A stretch of DNA of 24,330 bases. It comes from a virus. The stretch lies in the UHGV virus genome UHGV-0242784. One strand, 5' to 3'. Position 1 is the stretch's first letter; each line of letters starts with the position of its first letter. A model generated the notes under the pieces. It ran no database searches, was not told the origin of the DNA, and saw only the letters and a program-made list of their open reading frames with translations. Positions 3,876 to 23,835 of the stretch are shown here, in pieces. Both the position numbers and the translations under genes were made by a program.

Positions 3876-3980
3876 GGATATTTATCAGGATTTATCGGTT
3901 TCTGAACCCTGGATATGTTTATCTGTCCCGGCCTGTTGAATCAGGCGGGGAAAAGGTAAAGACAATCAAGAGGATTATTT

Positions 3981-5256: not shown

Positions 5257-5535
5257 TATTGTGGTACTTTTTGTGGGAGTCATCCACTTACGCACTTTGT
5301 TTTGCTATGCCAGCAGTTAGCTTCTGCTGTAAAACTATTCATGCAGCAAACCTGCACTTCACCACAATGGTTAGCATACTTTTCCTGATTAAGTTATTGC
5401 CAAATATGCTGGCCATTGTTTCATGTATTGGACCTCCTTACTATTTATTAAAGAGATCCAATATTCACCACTCTGTCTGTATCTCCACTCAGGCATCAGC
5501 CTTCTTCGTTATCGTATACAGACAAACTATGAATT

Positions 5536-5751
5536 TTAATCAGTAATTATGACATTTGCTGCTGCAGGACCTTTAGCACCACTCTCTACAGAGAAGGTAA
5601 CCTTTTGACCTTCAAATAAGGTTCGATAATTATCATTCTGAATCGCAGAAAAATGCACAAACACATCTTTACTACCATCAACAGGAGAAATAAAGCCAAA
5701 ACCTTTATCAGCGTTAAACCATTTTACTAAACCAGTCATTTTATTTGACAT
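5536..5751 (-). CDS. cspB: Cold-shock protein, CspB-like
   Basis: [53 protein letters not shown]...: cold-shock domain; AT-rich leader region upstream. Confidence 0.9.
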
Positions 5752-6051
5752 TCTACATTCCTTAACTTGAGCCTTTCGGCATAAATGGCTTGTATAACAG
5801 AAACGACTTCGTACTTAATTGGAGAGACTCAAAGAAGGAATAAGTGAATAACACCTGAAATGAGAACTGCTTTAGTAAACTACTTCGTATATCGTCTGTT
5901 CTTCAAACCGACGCAATCATTAACGCATAGTTGAACATATGAAGCAATGTTTATTTTAGACATCCAGCCATCTTCAACCCCATCAAAAAACTATAGCTTT
6001 CTTCAGGAACGTGTGTATAGTGCGCCAAGTTATCAGTATTAAGGAATTTTT

Positions 6052-12237: not shown

Positions 12238-12576
12238 CTATTTCCCTGAATTTACGACGAAACTGTTCGAGCGGGCTGAAGCACTCATGCTCATAGCCTT
12301 CGCGGAGGTAGATAACCCGTTGTGTTTCCGGTTCCCAACGAATGACTCTGACGGGTACTCCGTAGTGATCTTTGAACCAGCGGTTAACTTGTCGCAAAGG
12401 ACTGTCTCCTTCTGCCGGTTGAAATCACCCACAGCCCACTCAGCAAAGCTGTGGGTTACAATTTCCCTGTCACCTGGTACATTTACTGCATAGCAATACT
12501 CCACCTTCGCTTTTCCACCCGGTACAGGAAGCGCAATCAGTTGCGAGCGACGGTAGTGTGTTGTTAAACTGTTCAT
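12238..12576 (-). CDS. Hypothetical protein (112 aa)
   Basis: Start ATG overlaps the upstream stop (ATGA) and the ORF ends 10 nt before the replication gene, consistent with an operon; the overlapping plus-strand ORF 12221-12493 is rejected. Confidence 0.4.
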
Positions 12577-13244
12577 GCGTTAGTTTCTCCACAACCAGAA
12601 GCAATCGACGCCACGACGCCCGGAGCTGCACACTCGCGGGCGTCATTACTTTCTGAAACGCAAAAAATTTTGTAGACAAGTGCTGCATGCTCCTGCAGCT
12701 TCGAAATTGAGAGGTACAGCTCGTCGTTAATTGCTGTCTTCTCATGCGGTTCCACTACACCGTCTTCGATTGCCGAACGAATCTGTTTTGAATAACTGCC
12801 GATCTGTTCAATGACTTCCAGTAAACGCTGGTTAATATCGGCATTGTCCACATCCTCGACGTCAGGAAGAGACACAAAGACGCCATTTGCAGACTGCGCC
12901 ACAGCGTCAGCAATGAAGTGAGTGCCACCAGCACGTTGTAAAATCATTGCCCATCCCAGCGGGAAAATCTGATCGCCATCGGCACGAAGGCGGTTAAATA
13001 ATGCGTTCTCTGTTACATCCAGCCAGTCAGCTGCTTCAGCGTAACCACCCGGCAACGCTGCGATAGTTTTTCTGACAGCTTTCACGTACCACTCAGGCTG
13101 TTTTTCTACTTTCCAGTGATACTTACCCACGGTTAGCCTCATCGTTCTGTGGTTTCTGTTAATCGATTTATCCATTAGATTTTTCATAAAGCTCAGGTTT
13201 AAATGGCAACCGTCCGCAAGTTCTATATGCTGCTTCTGCTGCAC
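12573..13244 (-). CDS. YdaT-like protein in the cII position (start uncertain; ORF overlaps the cro-like gene by 77 nt if 13244 is used)
   Basis: ORF track; N-terminus [12 protein letters not shown] resembles my recollection of Rac YdaT; alternative starts at 13187, 13175 or 13142. Confidence 0.5.
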
Positions 13245-13368
13245 GTCCTTTTGGAATTAACTGGCCCGGACGGTTTCGCCACTGATAAACGGCCTCAGTT
13301 GTTATGCCGAAAAAAGCAGCAACTTTCTCAATACTGCCGAAGTAGCTTTCGATATCGTCAGTTGTCAT
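13168..13368 (-). CDS. Cro/YdaS-like HTH regulator (66 aa), divergent from cI
   Basis: HTH-like segment IEKVAAFFGITTEAVYQWRN; SD GGAGGG 5 nt upstream of the ATG; divergent arrangement with the repressor gene. Confidence 0.65.
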   Translation of the reverse strand: MTTDDIESYFGSIEKVAAFFGITTEAVYQWRNRPGQLIPKGRAAEAAYRTCGRLPFKPELYEKSNG

Positions 13369-13377
13369 ACGCCCTCC

Positions 13378-13445
13378 AAAACTAAGTTTTATTAGATGTT
13401 AATTATCAATCTATCTTAGGTCAATAAAAACTAAGATTACTTAGT
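13378..13445. promoter_or_regulatory. Immunity-region operators and PR-like promoter: O1 AAAACTAAGTTTT (13378-13390), O2 ACTAAGATTACTTAGT (13430-13445), PR -10 TAACAT / -35 TTGACC on minus strand (13396-13424)
   Basis: Palindromes and hexamers read directly in the 98-bp cI/cro-like intergenic region; both operators share the ACTAAG half-site. Confidence 0.6.
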
Positions 13446-13466: not shown

Positions 13467-14093
13467 ATGGAAACGGTTGGTCAGCGTATAAAAGCTCTGA
13501 GAAGGGTTACCAGAACGTCCCAGAAAGAATTGGGTAAATTTTGTGGGGTAAGTGACGTTGCTGTGGGGTACTGGGAAAAAGACATCAATGTCCCTGGCGG
13601 GGAAGCACTTTCGAAATTAGCGAAGTTCTTTAATACGTCAATAGATTACATTCTTTATGGTGCTGAGTTTGAAGGCAAACTAGTCACAAACATGCGCAGA
13701 GTTCCTGTAATTTCGTGGGTTCAGGCTGGGCAGTTTACTGAGTGCAGGGCAGCAGAAGTGTTTAGTGAAGTGGACAAGTGGGTAGATACATCTTTAAAGA
13801 TTGGTGATAACTCATTTGCATTAGAAGTTAAAGGCGACTCCATGACTAATCCTAATGGCCTCCCAACAATACCAGAAGGTGCAACAGTGATTGTAGATCC
13901 TGATGCAGAACCTCGTCATGGAAAAATAGTCATTGCTCGACTTGATGGAACGAACGAAGCTACAGTAAAAAAATTAGTCATCGATGGTCCTCAAAAGTTT
14001 TTAGTGCCATTAAATCCACGGTATCCCAACATCCCAATCAATGGTAATTGCCTGATCATTGGTGTAGTCAAAGGAGTTCAATACGAACTCTAG
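13467..14093 (+). CDS. cI: CI-type prophage repressor (HTH-XRE N-domain + S24 LexA-like autopeptidase C-domain)
   Basis: N-terminal HTH (QKELGKFCGVSDVAVGYWE), linker, C-terminal S24 domain with GDSM serine motif (EVKGDSMTNP) and a downstream Lys (KKLV); divergent from the cro-like gene. Confidence 0.9.
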   Translation: METVGQRIKALRRVTRTSQKELGKFCGVSDVAVGYWEKDINVPGGEALSKLAKFFNTSIDYILYGAEFEGKLVTNMRRVPVISWVQAGQFTECRAAEVFSEVDKWVDTSLKIGDNSFALEVKGDSMTNPNGLPTIPEGATVIVDPDAEPRHGKIVIARLDGTNEATVKKLVIDGPQKFLVPLNPRYPNIPINGNCLIIGVVKGVQYEL

Positions 14094-14115
14094 TACCTCC
14101 CTTCTCTAACCAAGG

Positions 14116-14150
14116 CACCAAACTAAGAAAAGTTTGGTGTTTCCTCTTGC
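14116..14150 (+). terminator. Hairpin after cI (CACCAAACT-AAGAAA-AGTTTGGTG) with T-rich tail; terminator or operator-like palindrome
   Basis: Perfect 9-bp inverted repeat 23 nt after the cI stop; the arms contain the operator-like AAACT/AGTTT sequence. Confidence 0.45.
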
Positions 14151-14154
14151 CTTA

Positions 14155-14167
14155 AAAACTAAGTTAA
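14155..14167. promoter_or_regulatory. Third operator-like site AAAACTAAGTTAA (11/13 match to O1) inside a candidate promoter TTGCCT-N17-TAGATT (14147-14175, plus strand)
   Basis: Direct sequence comparison with O1; candidate OL/PL equivalent. Confidence 0.4.
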
Positions 14168-14256
14168 GTTAGATTTAATATCAAAGATAACGAACAGGCA
14201 GGACGCCCACAAAGTAGCCTCCTGGGGCAAATGAAGTCCAGGATGATTCGTTAGCA

Positions 14257-14282
14257 ACAAAAAAGCGCCCTATAGGACGCTT
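14257..14282 (-). terminator. Rho-independent terminator for the 173-aa gene (GCGUCC-UAUA-GGGCGC with one G-U pair, then UUUUUU on minus strand)
   Basis: Stem-loop at 14265-14282 with a U-tract (complement of AAAAAA 14259-14264), 40-60 nt downstream of the stop at 14324. Confidence 0.55.
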
Positions 14283-14323
14283 CGATCTTTAACAATCTGG
14301 GTATCATCCAACCAATGCAAGAT

Positions 14324-14845
14324 TTAAGGAATCCAAGGCGAATTCAGATCTCGCCCCGACTCACGTAATGATCTTGGTCGTTCGTACATCGGATTTTTTT
14401 CCATAAGAAATTTATTTTCACAGTGAAGGCAACGGCTTGTAAGAAAATGAGAAGTTTTACCTACTGGAAGCGGATGAAGTATCGATTTTATATTTTTGGA
14501 ATAACAAAGTGGGCACAGATGCACAGTTATTTCTTTTCCACTCACAATTTCATTTTTAGAGTAAACAAAAGCACCAGAGTCAAGCTGATCAAGGACATAT
14601 CCTTCTACCTTGGCACAAAAATCTTCAAACTCTGCAATTTTTGCTTTGAGATGCATCACCTCTTCATCACGAAGGCGGATCGCATCGCCAAGAGAGAAGC
14701 ATTCTGCCTGAAGCGTGATTAGTTTGTTCTGGAGTTCAATGGTTGCAGCTTTAACTTCTGCATCCGTTTTCGCGTCATTAATAACCTTAGCAAGACCGGC
14801 AGTCTCCTTTATAGCAGCCATAGCCGCAGACAGTTCAGCTATCAC
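14324..14845 (-). CDS. Hypothetical coiled-coil + zinc-ribbon protein (173 aa), lone gene convergent with cI
   Basis: ORF with apparent GTG start (alternative ATG at 14824); N-terminal heptad-like Ala/Leu/Lys/Glu-rich region; C-terminal CPLC...(x22)...CLHC; own terminator. Confidence 0.6.
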   Translation of the reverse strand: MIAELSAAMAAIKETAGLAKVINDAKTDAEVKAATIELQNKLITLQAECFSLGDAIRLRDEEVMHLKAKIAEFEDFCAKVEGYVLDQLDSGAFVYSKNEIVSGKEITVHLCPLCYSKNIKSILHPLPVGKTSHFLTSRCLHCENKFLMEKNPMYERPRSLRESGRDLNSPWIP

Positions 14846-15131
14846 GTTGAATACTCAGCTAGTTGTTGGGGGTATCCAGATTAACCAAATCCTTGTTGTT
14901 GGGGAATAACCAGGTCCACCTCGCCTGATGTGGCTAAAAGCAGGCACATAACAGCTAAGTATTTTCAACCAGAGAGAATCCTTAGCGTTGTGGTGAATGC
15001 GGCTCAGCGCACGCGGGTTAAGGTTGAGGCTGACAGTCGACCTTCTGTGGATACCCACCCGTCTGGTGTGCAACCTTCGCCAGGCACCGGGAGGCACCCG
15101 GCACCACAACTTTATGCTGTGTGTAGTCCTG

Positions 15132-15176
15132 GCGGTACCAGTTTGTACCCTTGCTTCCGGCTGGTACCGTCCTTTT
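15132..15176 (+). terminator. Terminator-like hairpin (CGGTACCAG ... CTGGTACCG, 19-nt loop) followed by TCCTTTTT
   Basis: Perfect 9-bp inverted repeat followed by a T-tract; inside the non-coding leader of the accessory operon. Confidence 0.5.
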
Positions 15177-15265
15177 TACAAAACAGAGAAGAGCATCACC
15201 GGACGACGGGCTCATAACCCAATCCATCCGGGCGGCTGCCACCGCAGGTGTTCTTCTCTGTTTTG
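15177..15265. repeat. Perfect 15-bp inverted repeat (ACAAAACAGAGAAGA / TCTTCTCTGTTTTGT) enclosing 59 nt with internal GC-rich hairpins: candidate structured RNA element
   Basis: Arms at 15177-15191 and 15251-15265 are exact reverse complements; the enclosed segment has further local pairing (GCGG-CTGCCA-CCGC). Confidence 0.6.
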
Positions 15266-15314
15266 TGGAGAAACTAATCGGCCTTGCAGGGTCGATATGA
15301 TGAGGAGCAGCAAA

Positions 15315-18601: not shown

Positions 18602-21600
18602 TCACACGCTGCGCCTTCGAGAATATTCATTTAATCGCTGATAACGAACATCTTGCTCCAGTTGTGGAGCAGCTTGAACAATTTGAAGCAAGCATTGCCC
18701 CAACTCTCGAGGCCCCCAGTGTTGTTCGGCAATCACGGCATTCAGCAGGGATAGAGCGTCCGCAGGATATCGGCTGCAAATATCTGATTCTAGCAAAAGG
18801 CGAACGTCGTAGCTAAGGTGTTCGAGCGGTTGCAGCCAGTCCTGCACCACTGCCAAAGCCGCCGGAAATTCACCTCGGGCAGCAATCACCATACGAGTCA
18901 ACGATTCGGATATGCGTGGGGTGGCCAAGTTGCGGGACTTTGGCCAAACCTGTTGCCAAAATGGCTGGACACGATTTTTCCAATACTCCTCGCGCTGATC
19001 GCCCGCACCTTCAAGTGCCTGGTATAACGCCTGCGCGGCTACCTCCAGACCTTCTTGTGGAAGAGCACTAATTGCCGTTCGGAACTCCTCCACGGTATAT
19101 CCCTCGGTAGGGCCCAGAGCTGCATAAGTCAGGAAAGTAGCGAATTGCTGCCGGTGCTCGCCAAGATCAGAATAGTGATTGGCGCTCTCCAAAAAATCTG
19201 ACTTGAAAGCTATCAGCAACGGTTCATACAGGCGTGGCGACCAGAGGAAGCCTTCCCACACAGCTTTTGCTTCGACGGGATTACTCCAAGCAAACAAGGG
19301 CAATAGATACTGTTCGGTCCAAGGTCGATCTACGCGAAAAAATGCGATCAGCCGCGACCCCAGCAACACCCGACCATGGCGGAATAGCTCTATCTGTACA
19401 TTACACAATTTGGTGAAAAGTGTTTTCAATTCAACAGGAAGCAAATCATTGTCATTCGGGTTCTGTTTGAACCATAGGGTGATCAGTGATTGCGTGACAT
19501 GCCCAATGGGATGATTGATCGCCGTAGAAACAGGATCATAGGTCTCAATTCCGTTTCGAATGGTGCTAGACTCTGGGCTTGTTTCTATCATCAGAACCCG
19601 ACGACAAAGGGCCAGTAGAATCTCCTCGTGGCAGAGGATGGTCTTCGAAGCCTCCTCCATCCACCAAGTGACAGCGTGGGAAATCTCCTGAAGTACTGCG
19701 TCAGGCATGTCAAGCACCAACGGTGCGGCGTACCGCCACGAACGCAAAATCATCCCTGGTTCAGCCCAAGTCTGCAGAGCTTCACGCCACCGACCAACAG
19801 GCCACACATCATCTTGTGATAGTTTACTTAACGCATACAGACTGTGAAAAAAGCGCGTACGGCAAACATCACTCCAAGTGTCCTCATAGAAAGGCAGTCT
19901 TTCTGGCATAGGCTTTGCGAGCCATTGCACTAATTCCTGCCACTTACGGGGCGCAATGTCGACATCTATATTCTCCTCGAAGCCTGGATCACCGGTTCCG
20001 CTCATCCAGTGAGAGAATTCATCACGCTCGTTGGTTGCCAGTTGCCATTTTGGGTATGCTGTGGATATTTCCGTCAAACGTGTAGCCGCAGACTCTCCCA
20101 AAACAAGGCCCGCTCCCCTGAGCTTCGCTAGACACAACCAGACGGAATGAGCCACCAAATAATGCCACCTGTCTGCTTCCAAATTATCCTCGTACATCTC
20201 GCGCGGAGGCCCTGCCAAGATAGCAGTTTCCAGACGCTCTTGTGCAATTCCTGTCAGATGTCGTCCCTGCAAAACAAACAGTCTGAATACCTCTCGCCCA
20301 GTATCCGTGGCCCACAACCACCATGAACCGTCCTCTAACAACCAATTAACCCACCGCTCAGGTGGTATGCAGTTGTCTTGGCTTGCGGCAAACAGTGCCA
20401 GACGTTTGAAGGTGGGATATGGCAACTCAAACCAATTCTGAGCAATGCGCGTGGCCTGATCGCTGTCTTTGGCTCGAACGGCTAACCATGAATCCCGAAG
20501 TAATTCAATCAGGCTCACCCAATCGCGGAACCCCCGGTTCTGCCAGTGCGGAGTGATGGACGGCAAATCCCAATGCGAGCGGTCGTGACGATCGTCGGAC
20601 TCTCCCAACTCCCGCAACAAGTCCAGTGCATCACGCAACAACTGCTGAAAATCTTCCAACAGGTATGGCAAGGACGATTTCCATGACTCGTCAGCAAGGT
20701 CGAACAGGGTTGAACGTACGTAATCAGCAGTCAGCACCAGCTCCCAATCCACCAATTGCTTGATTCGCAAGGGTTCATCAGTGCTGCTCGAATCGTCTTC
20801 ACTATAGCGAAACGGCCGCCTCAACATAACCTTGGGAGAAAGCAACTCGCGTAACTCCAAGCGCAATGTAGTCGTCAAGCCTTCATTCTTTAAGCGGTTT
20901 TGCCAACGATACAAATCCAGGTTCTGCAATGGCGATTTCACACGACCACTAAGCAGAAGCCGCCATAAAGTAGACATAGGTGGACCAGGAATAGCCAGGG
21001 GGGAATGCAAGAGAATTTCATCTAACTCAAAAGTCTTACGCTCCCGCATCAGTGCTGCTAAGCGATCTAGTTCGCTCTCAATCAGAAACATCCAACGGTC
21101 GTGTATTTGTCCGCCGCGTTCAGCAATCCATATGATCAACCTAGGGTCGCCCAGATAACGAACTAGCCAACGGGCTATATGGGACATTACGTCATCCCAT
21201 TTGCTAGCACTGACACATCCAGAAACCAGCGACATCTGCAGGGCCAGCTCATAGGGCGCAGGACGCTGAACCAGACTGAATCGGAGTTTCGGGTCAATTT
21301 CGACATGCGGAGATACACAAAAGCGTGGCAGATCGCTGTATTTAAATCGTTCGTCCGAGAAAGCTTTCAATAACCAATCCAGCGGCGGTGCAGGATTGAG
21401 TTCCGCAAAGCGTTTTGCTGGTAAACCTGATTTATCTGACAAGGCCCACAACATCCGACCAACGAAATCGTCCTGACGAGTGCTGTCCTGCGGGCGGGCC
21501 AGAGCATGTTTGACGACTATAGCCTCTTTGCCCTGTATACCATCTCGATAAGTATCTGCCCAAGCGTGCAACGTTTGATGCAGCACTGAATGATCAGTGG

Positions 21601-22429
21601 AGCCCGCCGGTACGGTGTAAAGGATAGGAGTGACCCCTTTGGCCTCCCACTCGATGGCTTTCCGGTGCTCCTGCCCCGGCTCACACTCCCCCAGTGCCCA
21701 TACTTGTGGTGTGACTTCACCGAGCCTCCGATCTGCTGCAAGCGCATCCATCATGTAGCGCAGTACCGGGTCGTTGATGCTGTAGCCAACGAAGCAGACC
21801 ACATAGTTACGAAATAACTCACTCACAAAGCGAGCTGCCCAACGCTCAGTGAGATAAGCCAAGCCAAAGTCACCGCTGGTAACAACCAGACGATTCAGGG
21901 CAGTATCATCCGCCTTTTCCGGTAACAGCCCATGCAGGTATACAAGTCCATCCCAGCGGCTGTTTTTTGGAATTGGCAGCATCGGCGCTACATAGGCCTG
22001 AAAAGCCTGGCCTGTACGTTTAGCTGCCACATGAAAGAGACGGTCAAAGTTGGTAGTGACCAATCGAAGGGCACCCTCGCGGCTACGGGCTAAACGTAAC
22101 AGCGCCGCCTGAGTATCAATAGCGCCCCTACGACGGAGCTTTGGCTTAAGGGCTTTTTCCAACGCGCGTCGGACGGCTATACGCTGCCCTGGTAAGCGCC
22201 GTTCCAGCAAATCTAATGTGCCGTCAAATTGCCCACGCTCGAAAACCTCACGCTCAATTTCTGAAAGTGTTGTTCCGTTCCTCTGGTAAATTAGTTCTAC
22301 CAACCCTTTGAAACCAGGTAAACCAGCAGGGTAGGAAATGCCTGCTCCACAGAAGAACACAACGCGCCCTTCCTCGTGCGCCTGCAAAAGCTCATCAGGA
22401 ATATCAGGGCCGTTGGTAATGAATTGCAT
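18602..22429 (-). CDS. Large SIR2-domain protein (1275 aa): N-terminal defence-type SIR2 NADase-like domain + ~1000-aa helical C-terminal region (DSR-like candidate)
   Basis: Uninterrupted 3.8-kb ORF with SD AGGAGG 7 nt upstream; SIR2 motifs in the first ~250 aa: VVFFCGAGIS, VTTNFDRLFH, VYLHGLL, VCFVGYSINDPVL; no Walker A (GxxxxGK[ST]) found by eye. Confidence 0.85.
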   Translation of the reverse strand: MQFITNGPDIPDELLQAHEEGRVVFFCGAGISYPAGLPGFKGLVELIYQRNGTTLSEIEREVFERGQFDGTLDLLERRLPGQRIAVRRALEKALKPKLRRRGAIDTQAALLRLARSREGALRLVTTNFDRLFHVAAKRTGQAFQAYVAPMLPIPKNSRWDGLVYLHGLLPEKADDTALNRLVVTSGDFGLAYLTERWAARFVSELFRNYVVCFVGYSINDPVLRYMMDALAADRRLGEVTPQVWALGECEPGQEHRKAIEWEAKGVTPILYTVPAGSTDHSVLHQTLHAWADTYRDGIQGKEAIVVKHALARPQDSTRQDDFVGRMLWALSDKSGLPAKRFAELNPAPPLDWLLKAFSDERFKYSDLPRFCVSPHVEIDPKLRFSLVQRPAPYELALQMSLVSGCVSASKWDDVMSHIARWLVRYLGDPRLIIWIAERGGQIHDRWMFLIESELDRLAALMRERKTFELDEILLHSPLAIPGPPMSTLWRLLLSGRVKSPLQNLDLYRWQNRLKNEGLTTTLRLELRELLSPKVMLRRPFRYSEDDSSSTDEPLRIKQLVDWELVLTADYVRSTLFDLADESWKSSLPYLLEDFQQLLRDALDLLRELGESDDRHDRSHWDLPSITPHWQNRGFRDWVSLIELLRDSWLAVRAKDSDQATRIAQNWFELPYPTFKRLALFAASQDNCIPPERWVNWLLEDGSWWLWATDTGREVFRLFVLQGRHLTGIAQERLETAILAGPPREMYEDNLEADRWHYLVAHSVWLCLAKLRGAGLVLGESAATRLTEISTAYPKWQLATNERDEFSHWMSGTGDPGFEENIDVDIAPRKWQELVQWLAKPMPERLPFYEDTWSDVCRTRFFHSLYALSKLSQDDVWPVGRWREALQTWAEPGMILRSWRYAAPLVLDMPDAVLQEISHAVTWWMEEASKTILCHEEILLALCRRVLMIETSPESSTIRNGIETYDPVSTAINHPIGHVTQSLITLWFKQNPNDNDLLPVELKTLFTKLCNVQIELFRHGRVLLGSRLIAFFRVDRPWTEQYLLPLFAWSNPVEAKAVWEGFLWSPRLYEPLLIAFKSDFLESANHYSDLGEHRQQFATFLTYAALGPTEGYTVEEFRTAISALPQEGLEVAAQALYQALEGAGDQREEYWKNRVQPFWQQVWPKSRNLATPRISESLTRMVIAARGEFPAALAVVQDWLQPLEHLSYDVRLLLESDICSRYPADALSLLNAVIAEQHWGPRELGQCLLQIVQAAPQLEQDVRYQRLNEYSRRRSV

Positions 22430-22611: not shown

Positions 22612-23835
22612 TCATTTCGAGCCTGAACGAGTACAAGTAACAATCGATTCAACTCTCTCCCACCATGCCTGGTAGGCTTTACGCTGTTCTTCTAGATAAT
22701 CACTCTTGTCATAAACTTGCCATACACCTGGCAGTTTATGACCGAGCATTATTTCAGCAATATGAGGCGCAGTAAGATCAGAAAAGTTTGTTCGTGCTGT
22801 TCGTCTCAAATCATGAAGAGACCAATGAGGAAATTGATACCCCAAACGCCGCCATGCGTACTGCATTAAATTGTAAGGTAGCGACTGCAATGATGTCCGA
22901 CCAACTGGTTCCCTGCTTCCTTCCTTAGTAAAAAGCATATCGGAACCGTTGTTCATAGAGATAACGTATTTTATAAGCTCTTCAACCGGTTCAATAATGG
23001 GCCGCTTTAGCGGTTCGCCTGTTATATCCCCTGTCTTATGTCGTTCTGGTGGTACAGTCCATATTTTATTAATGAAATCAAAATCGTCCACCTTGGCAGT
23101 AATTAGCTCTGAACTACGGCAACCAAAATGCAGCAATAGTTTAATGAAGGCCCGGTATTTAGGAACCATTCGAGAACCATCGATCGCAGCATAAAGGATT
23201 TTAATTTCATCATGTGTCAGAAACCGTTTCTTCTGACCTTTACGGATATCCATATCTTTACCCGTGATATCCGACAGCGGGCGAGTTTCAATGAGCTTTC
23301 TCTTATACGCCCAGACATGGGCCTGCTTTGCGTTAATTAGCAATCGGTCTGCTATTGCTGGAGTCTTAGTGCTAAGAGGCTCCAGGACTTCTAACCAATC
23401 ATGCAATGTAGCTGCATCGTGAGGGATATTCCCGATTTTAGAGAACAGGTGCAGCTCAAACGAGCGGAGTATCTGTTCAGAACCTTTTTTATTTTTTACA
23501 CAATATGCTTCATACCAAGCACGGATCACAGATTCTACCGTCATGGCTTCAGTAGCTTTACGTTTTTCTGCCAGCTTGACCAATCGTGGATTGCGGTTTG
23601 ACTCGAGTTCACCACGAAGACGGATAACTTCTTCTCTGGCCTCTTTTAGTCCAGTTGCCGGGTAAGTTCCGATATCAAGACGCTCACCTTTCCCCGCCCA
23701 CTGATAACGATATTGGAACACTACGCGACCTTTCGGTGATACTCTAACAGACAGACCATCACGATCGGATTTAACCAAAACCTTATCACGTTCCTTTCCA
23801 ACAACTGAACGCAACCACGCATCAGACAGCGCCAT
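22612..23835 (-). CDS. int: Tyrosine recombinase / integrase (P4-type, 407 aa)
   Basis: Catalytic residues in the expected order (R ... HDLRRT ... Y near the C-terminus); N-terminal arm-binding-like region; located at the prophage end next to the host junction. Confidence 0.9.
   Translation of the reverse strand: MALSDAWLRSVVGKERDKVLVKSDRDGLSVRVSPKGRVVFQYRYQWAGKGERLDIGTYPATGLKEAREEVIRLRGELESNRNPRLVKLAEKRKATEAMTVESVIRAWYEAYCVKNKKGSEQILRSFELHLFSKIGNIPHDAATLHDWLEVLEPLSTKTPAIADRLLINAKQAHVWAYKRKLIETRPLSDITGKDMDIRKGQKKRFLTHDEIKILYAAIDGSRMVPKYRAFIKLLLHFGCRSSELITAKVDDFDFINKIWTVPPERHKTGDITGEPLKRPIIEPVEELIKYVISMNNGSDMLFTKEGSREPVGRTSLQSLPYNLMQYAWRRLGYQFPHWSLHDLRRTARTNFSDLTAPHIAEIMLGHKLPGVWQVYDKSDYLEEQRKAYQAWWERVESIVTCTRSGSK

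Follow-up and report, generated by a model that had tools for sequence, protein, structure and literature searches.

Positions 14324–14845 of the viral genome UHGV-0242784 (24,330 nucleotides, referred to here as the window) hold a 173-residue open reading frame (ORF) on the minus strand beside a cI repressor gene. We consider it probable that this ORF encodes a protein of the Rip1 ('ring interacting pore 1') family, and thus a single-gene abortive-infection defence that an SfV/SfIV-like lambdoid prophage of E. coli carries as a moron. The assignment draws on a profile match, a fold match, conserved cysteine, tyrosine and leucine residues, and an antisense, stand-alone genomic context. Homology, fold, conserved residues of the zinc site, cassette anatomy and genomic context were all established by the analysis, and the ORF is a further example of a known defence family, named in 2026, rather than a new kind of defence.

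Using a profile of 105 homologues against PDB sequences, we matched chain L of entry 9oox, Rip1, with E = 3.2e-20, and the alignment runs nearly end to end (profile positions 5–151 against chain residues 15–160). The entry is titled 'Cryo-EM Structure of the Escherichia phage HK446 Rip1 in complex with the Enterobacteria phage T6 small terminase' and the chain matched is the product of HK446_037. With BLASTP the ORF product shows 25% identity to HK446 Rip1 (HK446_037; E = 2e-13) and 30% identity to JBD30_030 (E = 3e-20), while tblastn against phage genomes detected relatives of ~30% identity in the Pseudomonas Mu-like phages D3112 (orf25), DMS3, JBD30 and MP42, and the relative in lambdoid HK446 at 25% identity. 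A library-wide profile search with a cut-off of E<=1e-3 returned 2495 cluster representatives, with lengths of 145–180 residues and end-to-end matches in nearly all cases, which gives a family of ~2500 clusters as defined at 50% identity. In PHROGs the ORF falls into phrog_1244 (E = 2.7e-52), which is listed as of unknown function.

The first-pass annotation, made from the letters of the window, had not recognised the family, and this was reasonable for one that was named in 2026, is missed by Pfam, NCBIfam and PADLOC v2, and is a family of unknown function in PHROGs. It had recommended a sensitive homology and structure search, and with that search now run, Rip1 is found both by the profile (9oox_L) and by Foldseek. 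Its guess of a defence or abortive-infection cargo fits a product that is, by sequence and fold, a clear Rip1 homologue.

Predicted structure and conserved residues

An AlphaFold2 model of the ORF product has a mean predicted local distance difference test (pLDDT) score of 88.7, with helices at residues 2–24 and 28–79 and block pLDDT values of 92–96 over the C-terminal β-rich domain. Comparison of this model with the PDB using Foldseek identified 9oox_L (E = 3e-7) and 9oox_M (E = 2e-6), both with a probability of 1.00 and with template modelling scores, normalised to target length, of 0.53 and 0.71, respectively. Nothing else in the PDB was significant, all other matches having E > 0.2. The modelled chain has the layout expected of Rip1, with long N-terminal helices followed by a compact β domain.

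A CxxC...CxxC ribbon, already pointed out in the first-pass annotation, can be read directly as C111-x2-C114 and C139-x2-C142, and is presumed to be a zinc site. All four cysteines are invariant in two homologue alignments, are kept in 98.5–100% of 136 diverse relatives, and align with cysteines of HK446 Rip1 and JBD30_030. Likewise, Y83, Y95 and L123 are conserved in the alignment of 136 diverse relatives. The description of the N-terminal half as heptad-like stood in part: 6 of 8 a/d positions are hydrophobic per 28-residue window, which is a moderate count and makes the term a fair one, but falls short of establishing a classical coiled coil. The first 18 residues are Ala-rich with a mean hydrophobicity of 0.40, and no transmembrane segment or signal sequence was found in the ORF product.

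Characterised Rip1 and a proposed mechanism

Rip1 (Patel et al., Nature 651:1060–1067, 2026, doi 10.1038/s41586-025-10075-1) is a single-protein, prophage-encoded, pore-forming abortive-infection defence, with homologues that are widespread in Proteobacteria, chiefly in prophages (review PMC13434031). The protein alone is non-toxic, and mutations that escape it map to the portal in Pseudomonas phages and to the small terminase in E. coli phages (PMC13434031). Twelve Rip1 monomers cap an 11-mer small terminase ring, with the phage ring templating the 12-mer; the C-terminal half touches the terminase ring and the N-terminal part is an amphipathic helix (PMC13434031). Dye escapes from liposomes through the pore that the complex makes, infected cells lyse prematurely, and a single protein is both sensor and effector (PMC13434031). 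A conference report (PMC12908700) gives the same picture, and PMC13601566 counts Rip1 among the small terminase sensors. In the Pseudomonas Casadabanvirus JBD30, JBD30_030 lies on the opposite strand between a DUF1804/helix-turn-helix small-terminase-like gene and the large terminase/Mu-type portal genes, in agreement with the terminase-gene location given for Pseudomonas Rip1 in PMC13434031.

By analogy with these proteins we infer lysogen expression, a trigger, pore formation and a protection phenotype for the ORF product. The lysogen would transcribe the gene from a ~105-nt upstream element, transcription would stop at the gene's own directional terminator, and the product by itself would be harmless. 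Once another phage had entered late expression, its small terminase 11-mer or portal ring would be bound by the four-Cys β domain. This ring would then template a Rip1 ring of ~12 subunits, whose N-terminal amphipathic helices would form a pore in the inner membrane, and the cell would die or lyse before progeny were complete.

Several observations weigh against the Rip1 assignment or against transferring this mechanism in full. Identity to both characterised Rip1 proteins is only 25–31%, and trigger specificity, and even activity, may therefore differ in the ORF product. The clade of the ORF has an invariant C49 that HK446 and JBD30 Rip1 do not share, it has H124 where 89% of the Rip1 family has Q, and it carries a ~20-residue C-terminal tail that both characterised proteins lack. 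The N-terminal helices reach a hydrophobic moment of at most 0.34, which is modest. Searches of the ORF against Pfam, NCBIfam and PADLOC v2 (2023) gave sub-threshold noise only and no family call, and a consensus sigma-70 scan upstream of the ORF found no promoter, the candidate promoter described below matching just 6 of 12 positions. Furthermore, the mechanism of Rip1 is drawn here from secondary accounts and not from the primary report.

The gene and its locus

The first-pass annotation described a 173-residue ORF on the opposite strand adjoining cI, and this is borne out by the ORF listing, which gives a GTG start, a gene convergent with cI and no longer in-frame extension (Table 1). The start region MIAELSAAM is kept in homologues, which backs the GTG start, and among 17 related genome loci the start codon is GTG in all but one, where it is TTG. 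A large protein collection yielded 167 homologues at E<=1e-3 that are full length throughout, with the start and the cysteines kept; every one of them is annotated as 'hypothetical', and their hosts are many Enterobacterales.

The window is a prophage of E. coli, and among lambdoid phages it falls into the SfV/SfII/SfIV group. Positions 14100–15300 are matched at 100% identity by several complete E. coli chromosomes, at least 80% of this interval (gene included) is present in 372 of the 5426 complete E. coli genomes, and 12 complete E. coli genome records among the matches listed have the sequence at 100% identity. The local order is CII-like gene, Cro, oR, cI, rip1-like ORF, ~430 nt of non-coding DNA and the early-left genes, with a gap of 230 bp between cI and the ORF, which lie on opposite strands and converge. 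The early-left genes are on the plus strand and comprise a YfdP-like gene from ~15276, followed by DUF2303/YfdQ, HD hydrolase and DUF551 genes, beyond which are a 1275-residue gene and then an integrase. The rip1-like gene stands alone as expected for Rip1: it is a single minus-strand gene flanked by genes on the plus strand, and it has a directional terminator, a conserved upstream element and a putative promoter.

Table 1. Coordinates of the rip1-like gene, its parts and the surrounding features in the window
Feature	Position	Strand	Details
rip1-like gene	14324..14845	-	173 aa, GTG start, TAA stop within the coordinates; ORF listing
N-terminal helical half, aa 2-79	14609..14842	-	AlphaFold2; putative pore-forming amphipathic part, by homology
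C-terminal β-rich domain, aa 84-150, four-Cys site	14396..14596	-	AlphaFold2; putative ring-contacting part, by homology
C111-x2-C114	codons 14515-14513, 14506-14504	-	Read from sequence
C139-x2-C142	codons 14431-14429, 14422-14420	-	Read from sequence
Weak Shine-Dalgarno sequence GAG	14854..14856	-	8 nt before GTG; column nearly invariant in alignment
Intrinsic terminator	14252..14283	-	GAAGCGTCC-TATA-GGGCGCTTT and U-run; terminator scan
Conserved ~105-nt upstream element	14846..14953	-	Presumed promoter and 5' untranslated region of the cargo slot
Repeat copy 2	14862..14871		GTTGTTGGGG on plus strand, CCCCAACAAC in mRNA sense; 17-26 nt upstream of GTG
Repeat copy 1	14895..14904		33 bp from copy 2; overlaps candidate -35
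Candidate promoter	14878..14906	-	-35 TTCCCC 14906..14901, 17-nt spacer, -10 TAATCT 14883..14878, start ~14871
cI terminator hairpin, oL-like operator repeats and candidate pL	14113..14175	+	Repeats shared with oR
Candidate pL	-35 TTGCCT 14147-14152, -10 TAGATT 14170-14175	+	17-nt spacer; sequence-inferred
cI repressor	13467..14093	+	HTH_3 and Peptidase_S24; convergent neighbour of the ORF
Cro	13168..13368	-	
CII-like gene	12573..13244	-	

A conserved cassette with exchangeable cargo

The gene had been credited with its own terminator and two upstream direct repeats. All of these are present, but they are cassette parts common to unrelated cargoes and are not specific to the ORF. The terminator stem (14283..14262, minus strand) comprises 9 pairs, after which a T-rich tail, TTTGTTG, provides a U6 run. 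Its folding energy is -14.9 kcal/mol on the minus strand versus -8.2 kcal/mol on the plus strand, where it has no U-run. As the hairpin is directional, transcripts from pL should read past it. The terminator is conserved in PhiR29_1, SfIV and 689R6, even beside unrelated cargo.

Upstream of the gene, the ~105-nt element shows 73–93% nucleotide identity across loci of ~10 genera, at which the Rip1-like proteins are only 50–86% identical. Its two repeats are the only exact GTTGTTGGGG 10-mers in the 24-kb window, and they are not chance occurrences because they are conserved in 17 related loci (~10 genera) and at least 120 IMG/VR contigs. Between them, TAATCT is invariant in 18 of 18 aligned sequences, and this invariance, together with an analogy to HK446, suggests TTCCCC/TAATCT as a putative upstream promoter. 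HK446 rip1 is preceded (locus L002, ~3890–3958) by direct repeats of its own, two copies of ACCCCTACAG ~34 nt apart with TAAAAT between them, and the equivalent of the candidate promoter there reads TACCCC-N17-TAAAAT, although the remaining upstream sequence is unrelated to that of the window. A lenient promoter scan of the 18 loci gave no common site reaching 8 of 12 positions. Sigma-32 or sigma-E -10 and -35 elements, a DnaA box, CsrA GGA sites, Hfq ARN motifs, rut-like C-rich tracts and rrn boxC were looked at by eye, and none of them is proposed here. The CCCCAACAAC boxes, one lying over the -35 and the other at the transcript start, may be regulator binding sites. RNAalifold detected no convincing structure on either strand of the element (-5.3 and -8.8 kcal/mol, with almost no covariation), which we regard as acting through its DNA or its primary sequence. 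A pseudoknot drawn by hand (GCCUG/CAGGC with CCAC/GUGG) gained no support.

The cassette borders were set by alignment with PhiR29_1, SfIV and 689R6, from which the window differs only in the intervening ORF. The common left flank extends through the hairpin to ...TCTTTAACAATCTGG (~14301) and the common right flank begins at GTTGTTGGGG (14862) and continues onward. PhiR29_1 carries a Rip1-like cargo with 58% protein identity, whereas SfIV and 689R6 carry an unrelated 144-residue protein; SfV, SfII and mEp460 have other inserts, without the hairpin or the repeats. A pattern search with the upstream element returned at least 120 IMG/VR contigs. A Rip1-like ORF begins ~21 nt after the element in 83 of 120 contigs, with a GTG start in 80 of those 83, while in 37 of 120 the first ORF after the element is not Rip1-like and at least three unrelated cargoes recur, namely a 148-residue family, a 98-residue protein, and a 26-residue proline-rich peptide together with a ~150-residue protein. 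By sequence comparison, then, the enterobacterial Rip1 clade is usually found in a defined repressor-adjacent slot with a conserved expression element and exchangeable cargo.

Among the alternative cargoes, the 144–148-residue family, which has no Pfam or PADLOC match, uses the promoter element and terminator of the Rip1-like gene at L004 3331–3765 (minus strand; SfIV_36), at L025 1919–2353 (minus strand), and in L050 and its relatives. The 98-residue protein occurs at L030, L097 and L125. The proline-rich peptide has 26–28 residues (e.g. MSYDYEERHMPPFKRPEPPPKPDDSD) and begins 21 nt after the element at L041, L049, L037, L089, L046 and others (IMG/VR); the ~150-residue protein after it has a long hydrophobic stretch, read as two transmembrane helices (MTRDDMIFDVNYSFHLEKLYF...), and the pair is a candidate for a further small defence or toxin module of prophages.

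Position relative to cI and pL

In lambda, rexAB share the strand of cI, occupy the interval from cI to oL/pL and are co-transcribed with cI. The first-pass annotation had placed the ORF in such a rex-like slot, but this comparison is at best a loose one, as the ORF lies beyond oL/pL, on the opposite strand and outside the cI transcript. Operator-like repeats at 14120–14134 and 14153–14172 match those of oR (13376–13395 and 13425–13444) and directly follow the cI terminator hairpin, which has a folding energy of -14.7 kcal/mol (z = -3.7). At the place of the candidate pL, the heteroimmune phages PhiR29_1, SfIV and SfV have TTGACA-N17-ATAATG. With the operator repeats and the candidate pL located between cI and the ORF, the latter falls inside the early-left unit and is antisense to it.

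Elsewhere, a cI-like gene converges with a Rip1-like gene in ~11 of 20 genome loci of other genera, and also in phage vB_EcoM-689R2. The Rip1-like gene is antisense to both of its neighbours in three independent settings: the pL leader in the window, a position downstream of N in HK446, and the interval between terminase genes in JBD30. Since the ORF is antisense to the pL transcript, transcripts that run through it from pL after induction may lower its expression and so leave the resident phage unharmed; in other words, lytic transcription could damp Rip1 synthesis in the phage that carries it. A broader proposal, which we put forward tentatively and regard as somewhat doubtful, is that the defence gene is only the cargo carried at present by a portable antisense expression cassette in the pL leader of SfV/SfIV-like prophages, with swappable cargo, two CCCCAACAAC boxes, a one-way terminator, and pL read-through that silences the cargo on induction. 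If true, the resident phage would be immune to its own cargo through transcriptional interference from pL on induction, with no need for an anti-defence protein.

The presumed pL transcript opens with a 64-nt block (14190–14253, plus strand; ACGAACAGGCAGGACGCCCAC...GGATGATTCGTT) that is kept in SfV, SfII, SfIV, mEp460_4F5, 689R6 and PhiR29_1, including heteroimmune phages and phages with other cargo, and this block could be a leader or antitermination RNA element. Directly after the terminator hairpin, in the pL sense, GCTCTTTAACAA is present in PhiR29_1, SfIV and 689R6 (L003 3096–3107, L004 3096–3107 and L025 1684–1695, respectively), and at 14284–14295 (plus strand) the window has GATCTTTAACAA, which differs by one mismatch. 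GCTCTTTAACAA is the rrn-type boxA sequence, and the site may be a Nus-factor site for antitermination of pL transcripts or the tail of the hairpin.

Alternative explanations

A re-purposed Rip1 fold, whose task would be to adjust packaging in its own phage or the time of lysis, or to counter plasmids or satellites in place of heterologous phages, is in our view unlikely. Such a role would be in keeping with the 25–31% identity to characterised Rip1, with the invariant residues and C-terminal tail particular to the clade, and with the location of the gene within the lytic transcription unit. However, the full-length architecture and every family-wide invariant residue are kept, and a gene antisense to the lytic operon with its own terminator has the layout of a lysogen-expressed moron, as in HK446 and JBD30. 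The cargo of the slot is also swappable and, because the slot carries alternative cargo, a gene within it is dispensable for phage growth. Expression in the lysogen is at issue in a further explanation, in which the ORF is unexpressed and either a decaying remnant or a chance ORF antisense to the pL leader. The scan found no consensus promoter, and the GTG start and weak Shine-Dalgarno sequence would also be compatible with this, but we judge it to be extremely improbable in view of 167 full-length homologues with conserved start and cysteines, 2495 cluster representatives, an upstream element and GTG that are conserved across genera, and a sequence that is 100% identical in 12 complete E. coli records among the matches listed.

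The remaining explanations concern what an expressed product would do. Long helices followed by CxxC...CxxC are superficially like the architecture of a coiled-coil and C4 zinc-finger transcription regulator (DksA/TraR-like) or another DNA- or RNA-binding zinc ribbon, and there is a weak NCBIfam match to the zinc-ribbon regulator CdsZ (E = 0.11). Against this, Pfam gave no zf-dskA_traR match even at E<=1 and only sub-threshold coiled-coil noise, the cysteine spacing is 24 residues, and Rip1 is the sole significant fold match as well as the profile match (E = 3e-20). The regulatory role entertained in the first-pass annotation thus gains nothing from Pfam or NCBIfam, which hold no DksA/TraR or other regulator for the ORF, or from the fold; the DksA/TraR-like candidate was rejected for having neither domain nor fold match, and we regard a regulator of this kind as very improbable. 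Superinfection exclusion at DNA entry or another early step, with survival of the cell, was among the options of the first-pass annotation and is how other prophage morons near immunity regions work, but it too has a very low probability for a product that has no transmembrane segment or signal sequence and whose homologues reportedly engage assembly proteins at a late stage and kill the cell. A Rip1-type abortive-infection defence accordingly stays our preferred reading.

Other features of the prophage

The 1275-residue gene (18602–22429, minus strand) encodes a full-length DSR1 defence-associated sirtuin (PADLOC Dsr1, 2729 bits, 1–1275; Pfam SIR2_2) and is adjoined by the integrase at 22612–23835. 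With DSR1 as a second defence gene, of a kind already known, the prophage is a defence-carrying element.

The non-coding stretch at 14916–15275 is 96–98% identical in SfV, SfII and SfIV, where no RNA feature is annotated. Within it, 14957–15179 (plus strand) gives a full-length but sub-threshold Rfam match to the prophage small RNA STnc100 (RF02076), with 41.2 bits versus a gathering threshold of 47 (E = 3e-7, model 1–206), and the region 14916–15290 folds with z = -5.5 on the plus strand and z = -2.9 on the minus strand. A preprint ties STnc100 to the PasD small RNAs. A 25-nt inverted repeat (84% complementary, 39-nt loop) occupies 15178–15266, just upstream of the start of the YfdP-like gene, and a block at ~15155–15290 is a second leader stretch that is conserved across genera. 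The cspA thermoregulator RNA family was matched above threshold at 2227–2642 and 5473–5912, both on the minus strand (113.7 and 156.7 bits, respectively), and these matches indicate two cold-shock-protein genes in the late or nin region.

Significance

A widespread 'hypothetical protein' is now placed in a defence family with a reported mechanism, and since Pfam, NCBIfam and PADLOC v2 all miss this family, its annotation can be improved. The slot is also a practical hunting ground for further small prophage defence genes, candidates for which are the 144–148-residue family, the 98-residue protein, and the 26-residue peptide with its two-transmembrane protein. Furthermore, the antisense layout gives a testable idea of how a prophage avoids triggering its own Rip1, and what most deserves to be followed is the exchangeable antisense cassette and its bearing on self-immunity.

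Comparison with known systems

HK446 Rip1 and the ORF product are similar in length (164 versus 173 residues), in their N-terminal helices followed by a CxxC...CxxC β domain, in predicted fold, and in the positions of their invariant Cys, Tyr and Leu residues. As with HK446 and JBD30 Rip1, the protein is encoded by a single prophage gene antisense within a lytic operon, and the start of HK446 rip1 is likewise closely preceded by two direct repeats of ~10 nt, spaced by ~34 nt. The differences from HK446 and JBD30 Rip1 are in sequence, with 25% and 30% identity, respectively, and with the C-terminal tail, C49 and H124 present only in the clade described here. The slot also differs: the ORF is flanked by pL/oL and the first early-left gene, HK446 rip1 lies downstream of N, and JBD30_030 separates terminase genes.

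Lambda RexAB is a prophage abortive-infection system that ends in membrane depolarisation. It resembles the rip1-like gene in lying in the immunity region of a lambdoid prophage and, on the account of Rip1 in PMC13434031, in an outcome in which the infected cell loses membrane integrity and dies. However, the two have no homology, and no Pfam, NCBIfam or PADLOC match of the ORF to Rex proteins was detected; RexAB comprises two genes in place of the one found here, and in Rip1 the sensor is the effector.

Tab of phage JBD26 occupies the slot in which other Casadabanviruses have a Rip1-like gene (PMC10884400) and, as does Rip1, it targets virion-assembly components late in infection. It is nevertheless an unrelated protein of 83 residues that blocks tail assembly via the tape-measure protein (Patel et al. 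2024, PMC10884400) and is paired with an anti-Tab, whereas there is no partner gene here. The Avs family and TerI also kill the cell once they have sensed conserved tailed-phage packaging proteins (PMC13601566). Avs proteins, however, are large STAND NTPases with separate effector domains, of which Avs1–3 sense the large terminase, while Rip1 has ~170 residues, senses oligomeric rings and is itself the pore.

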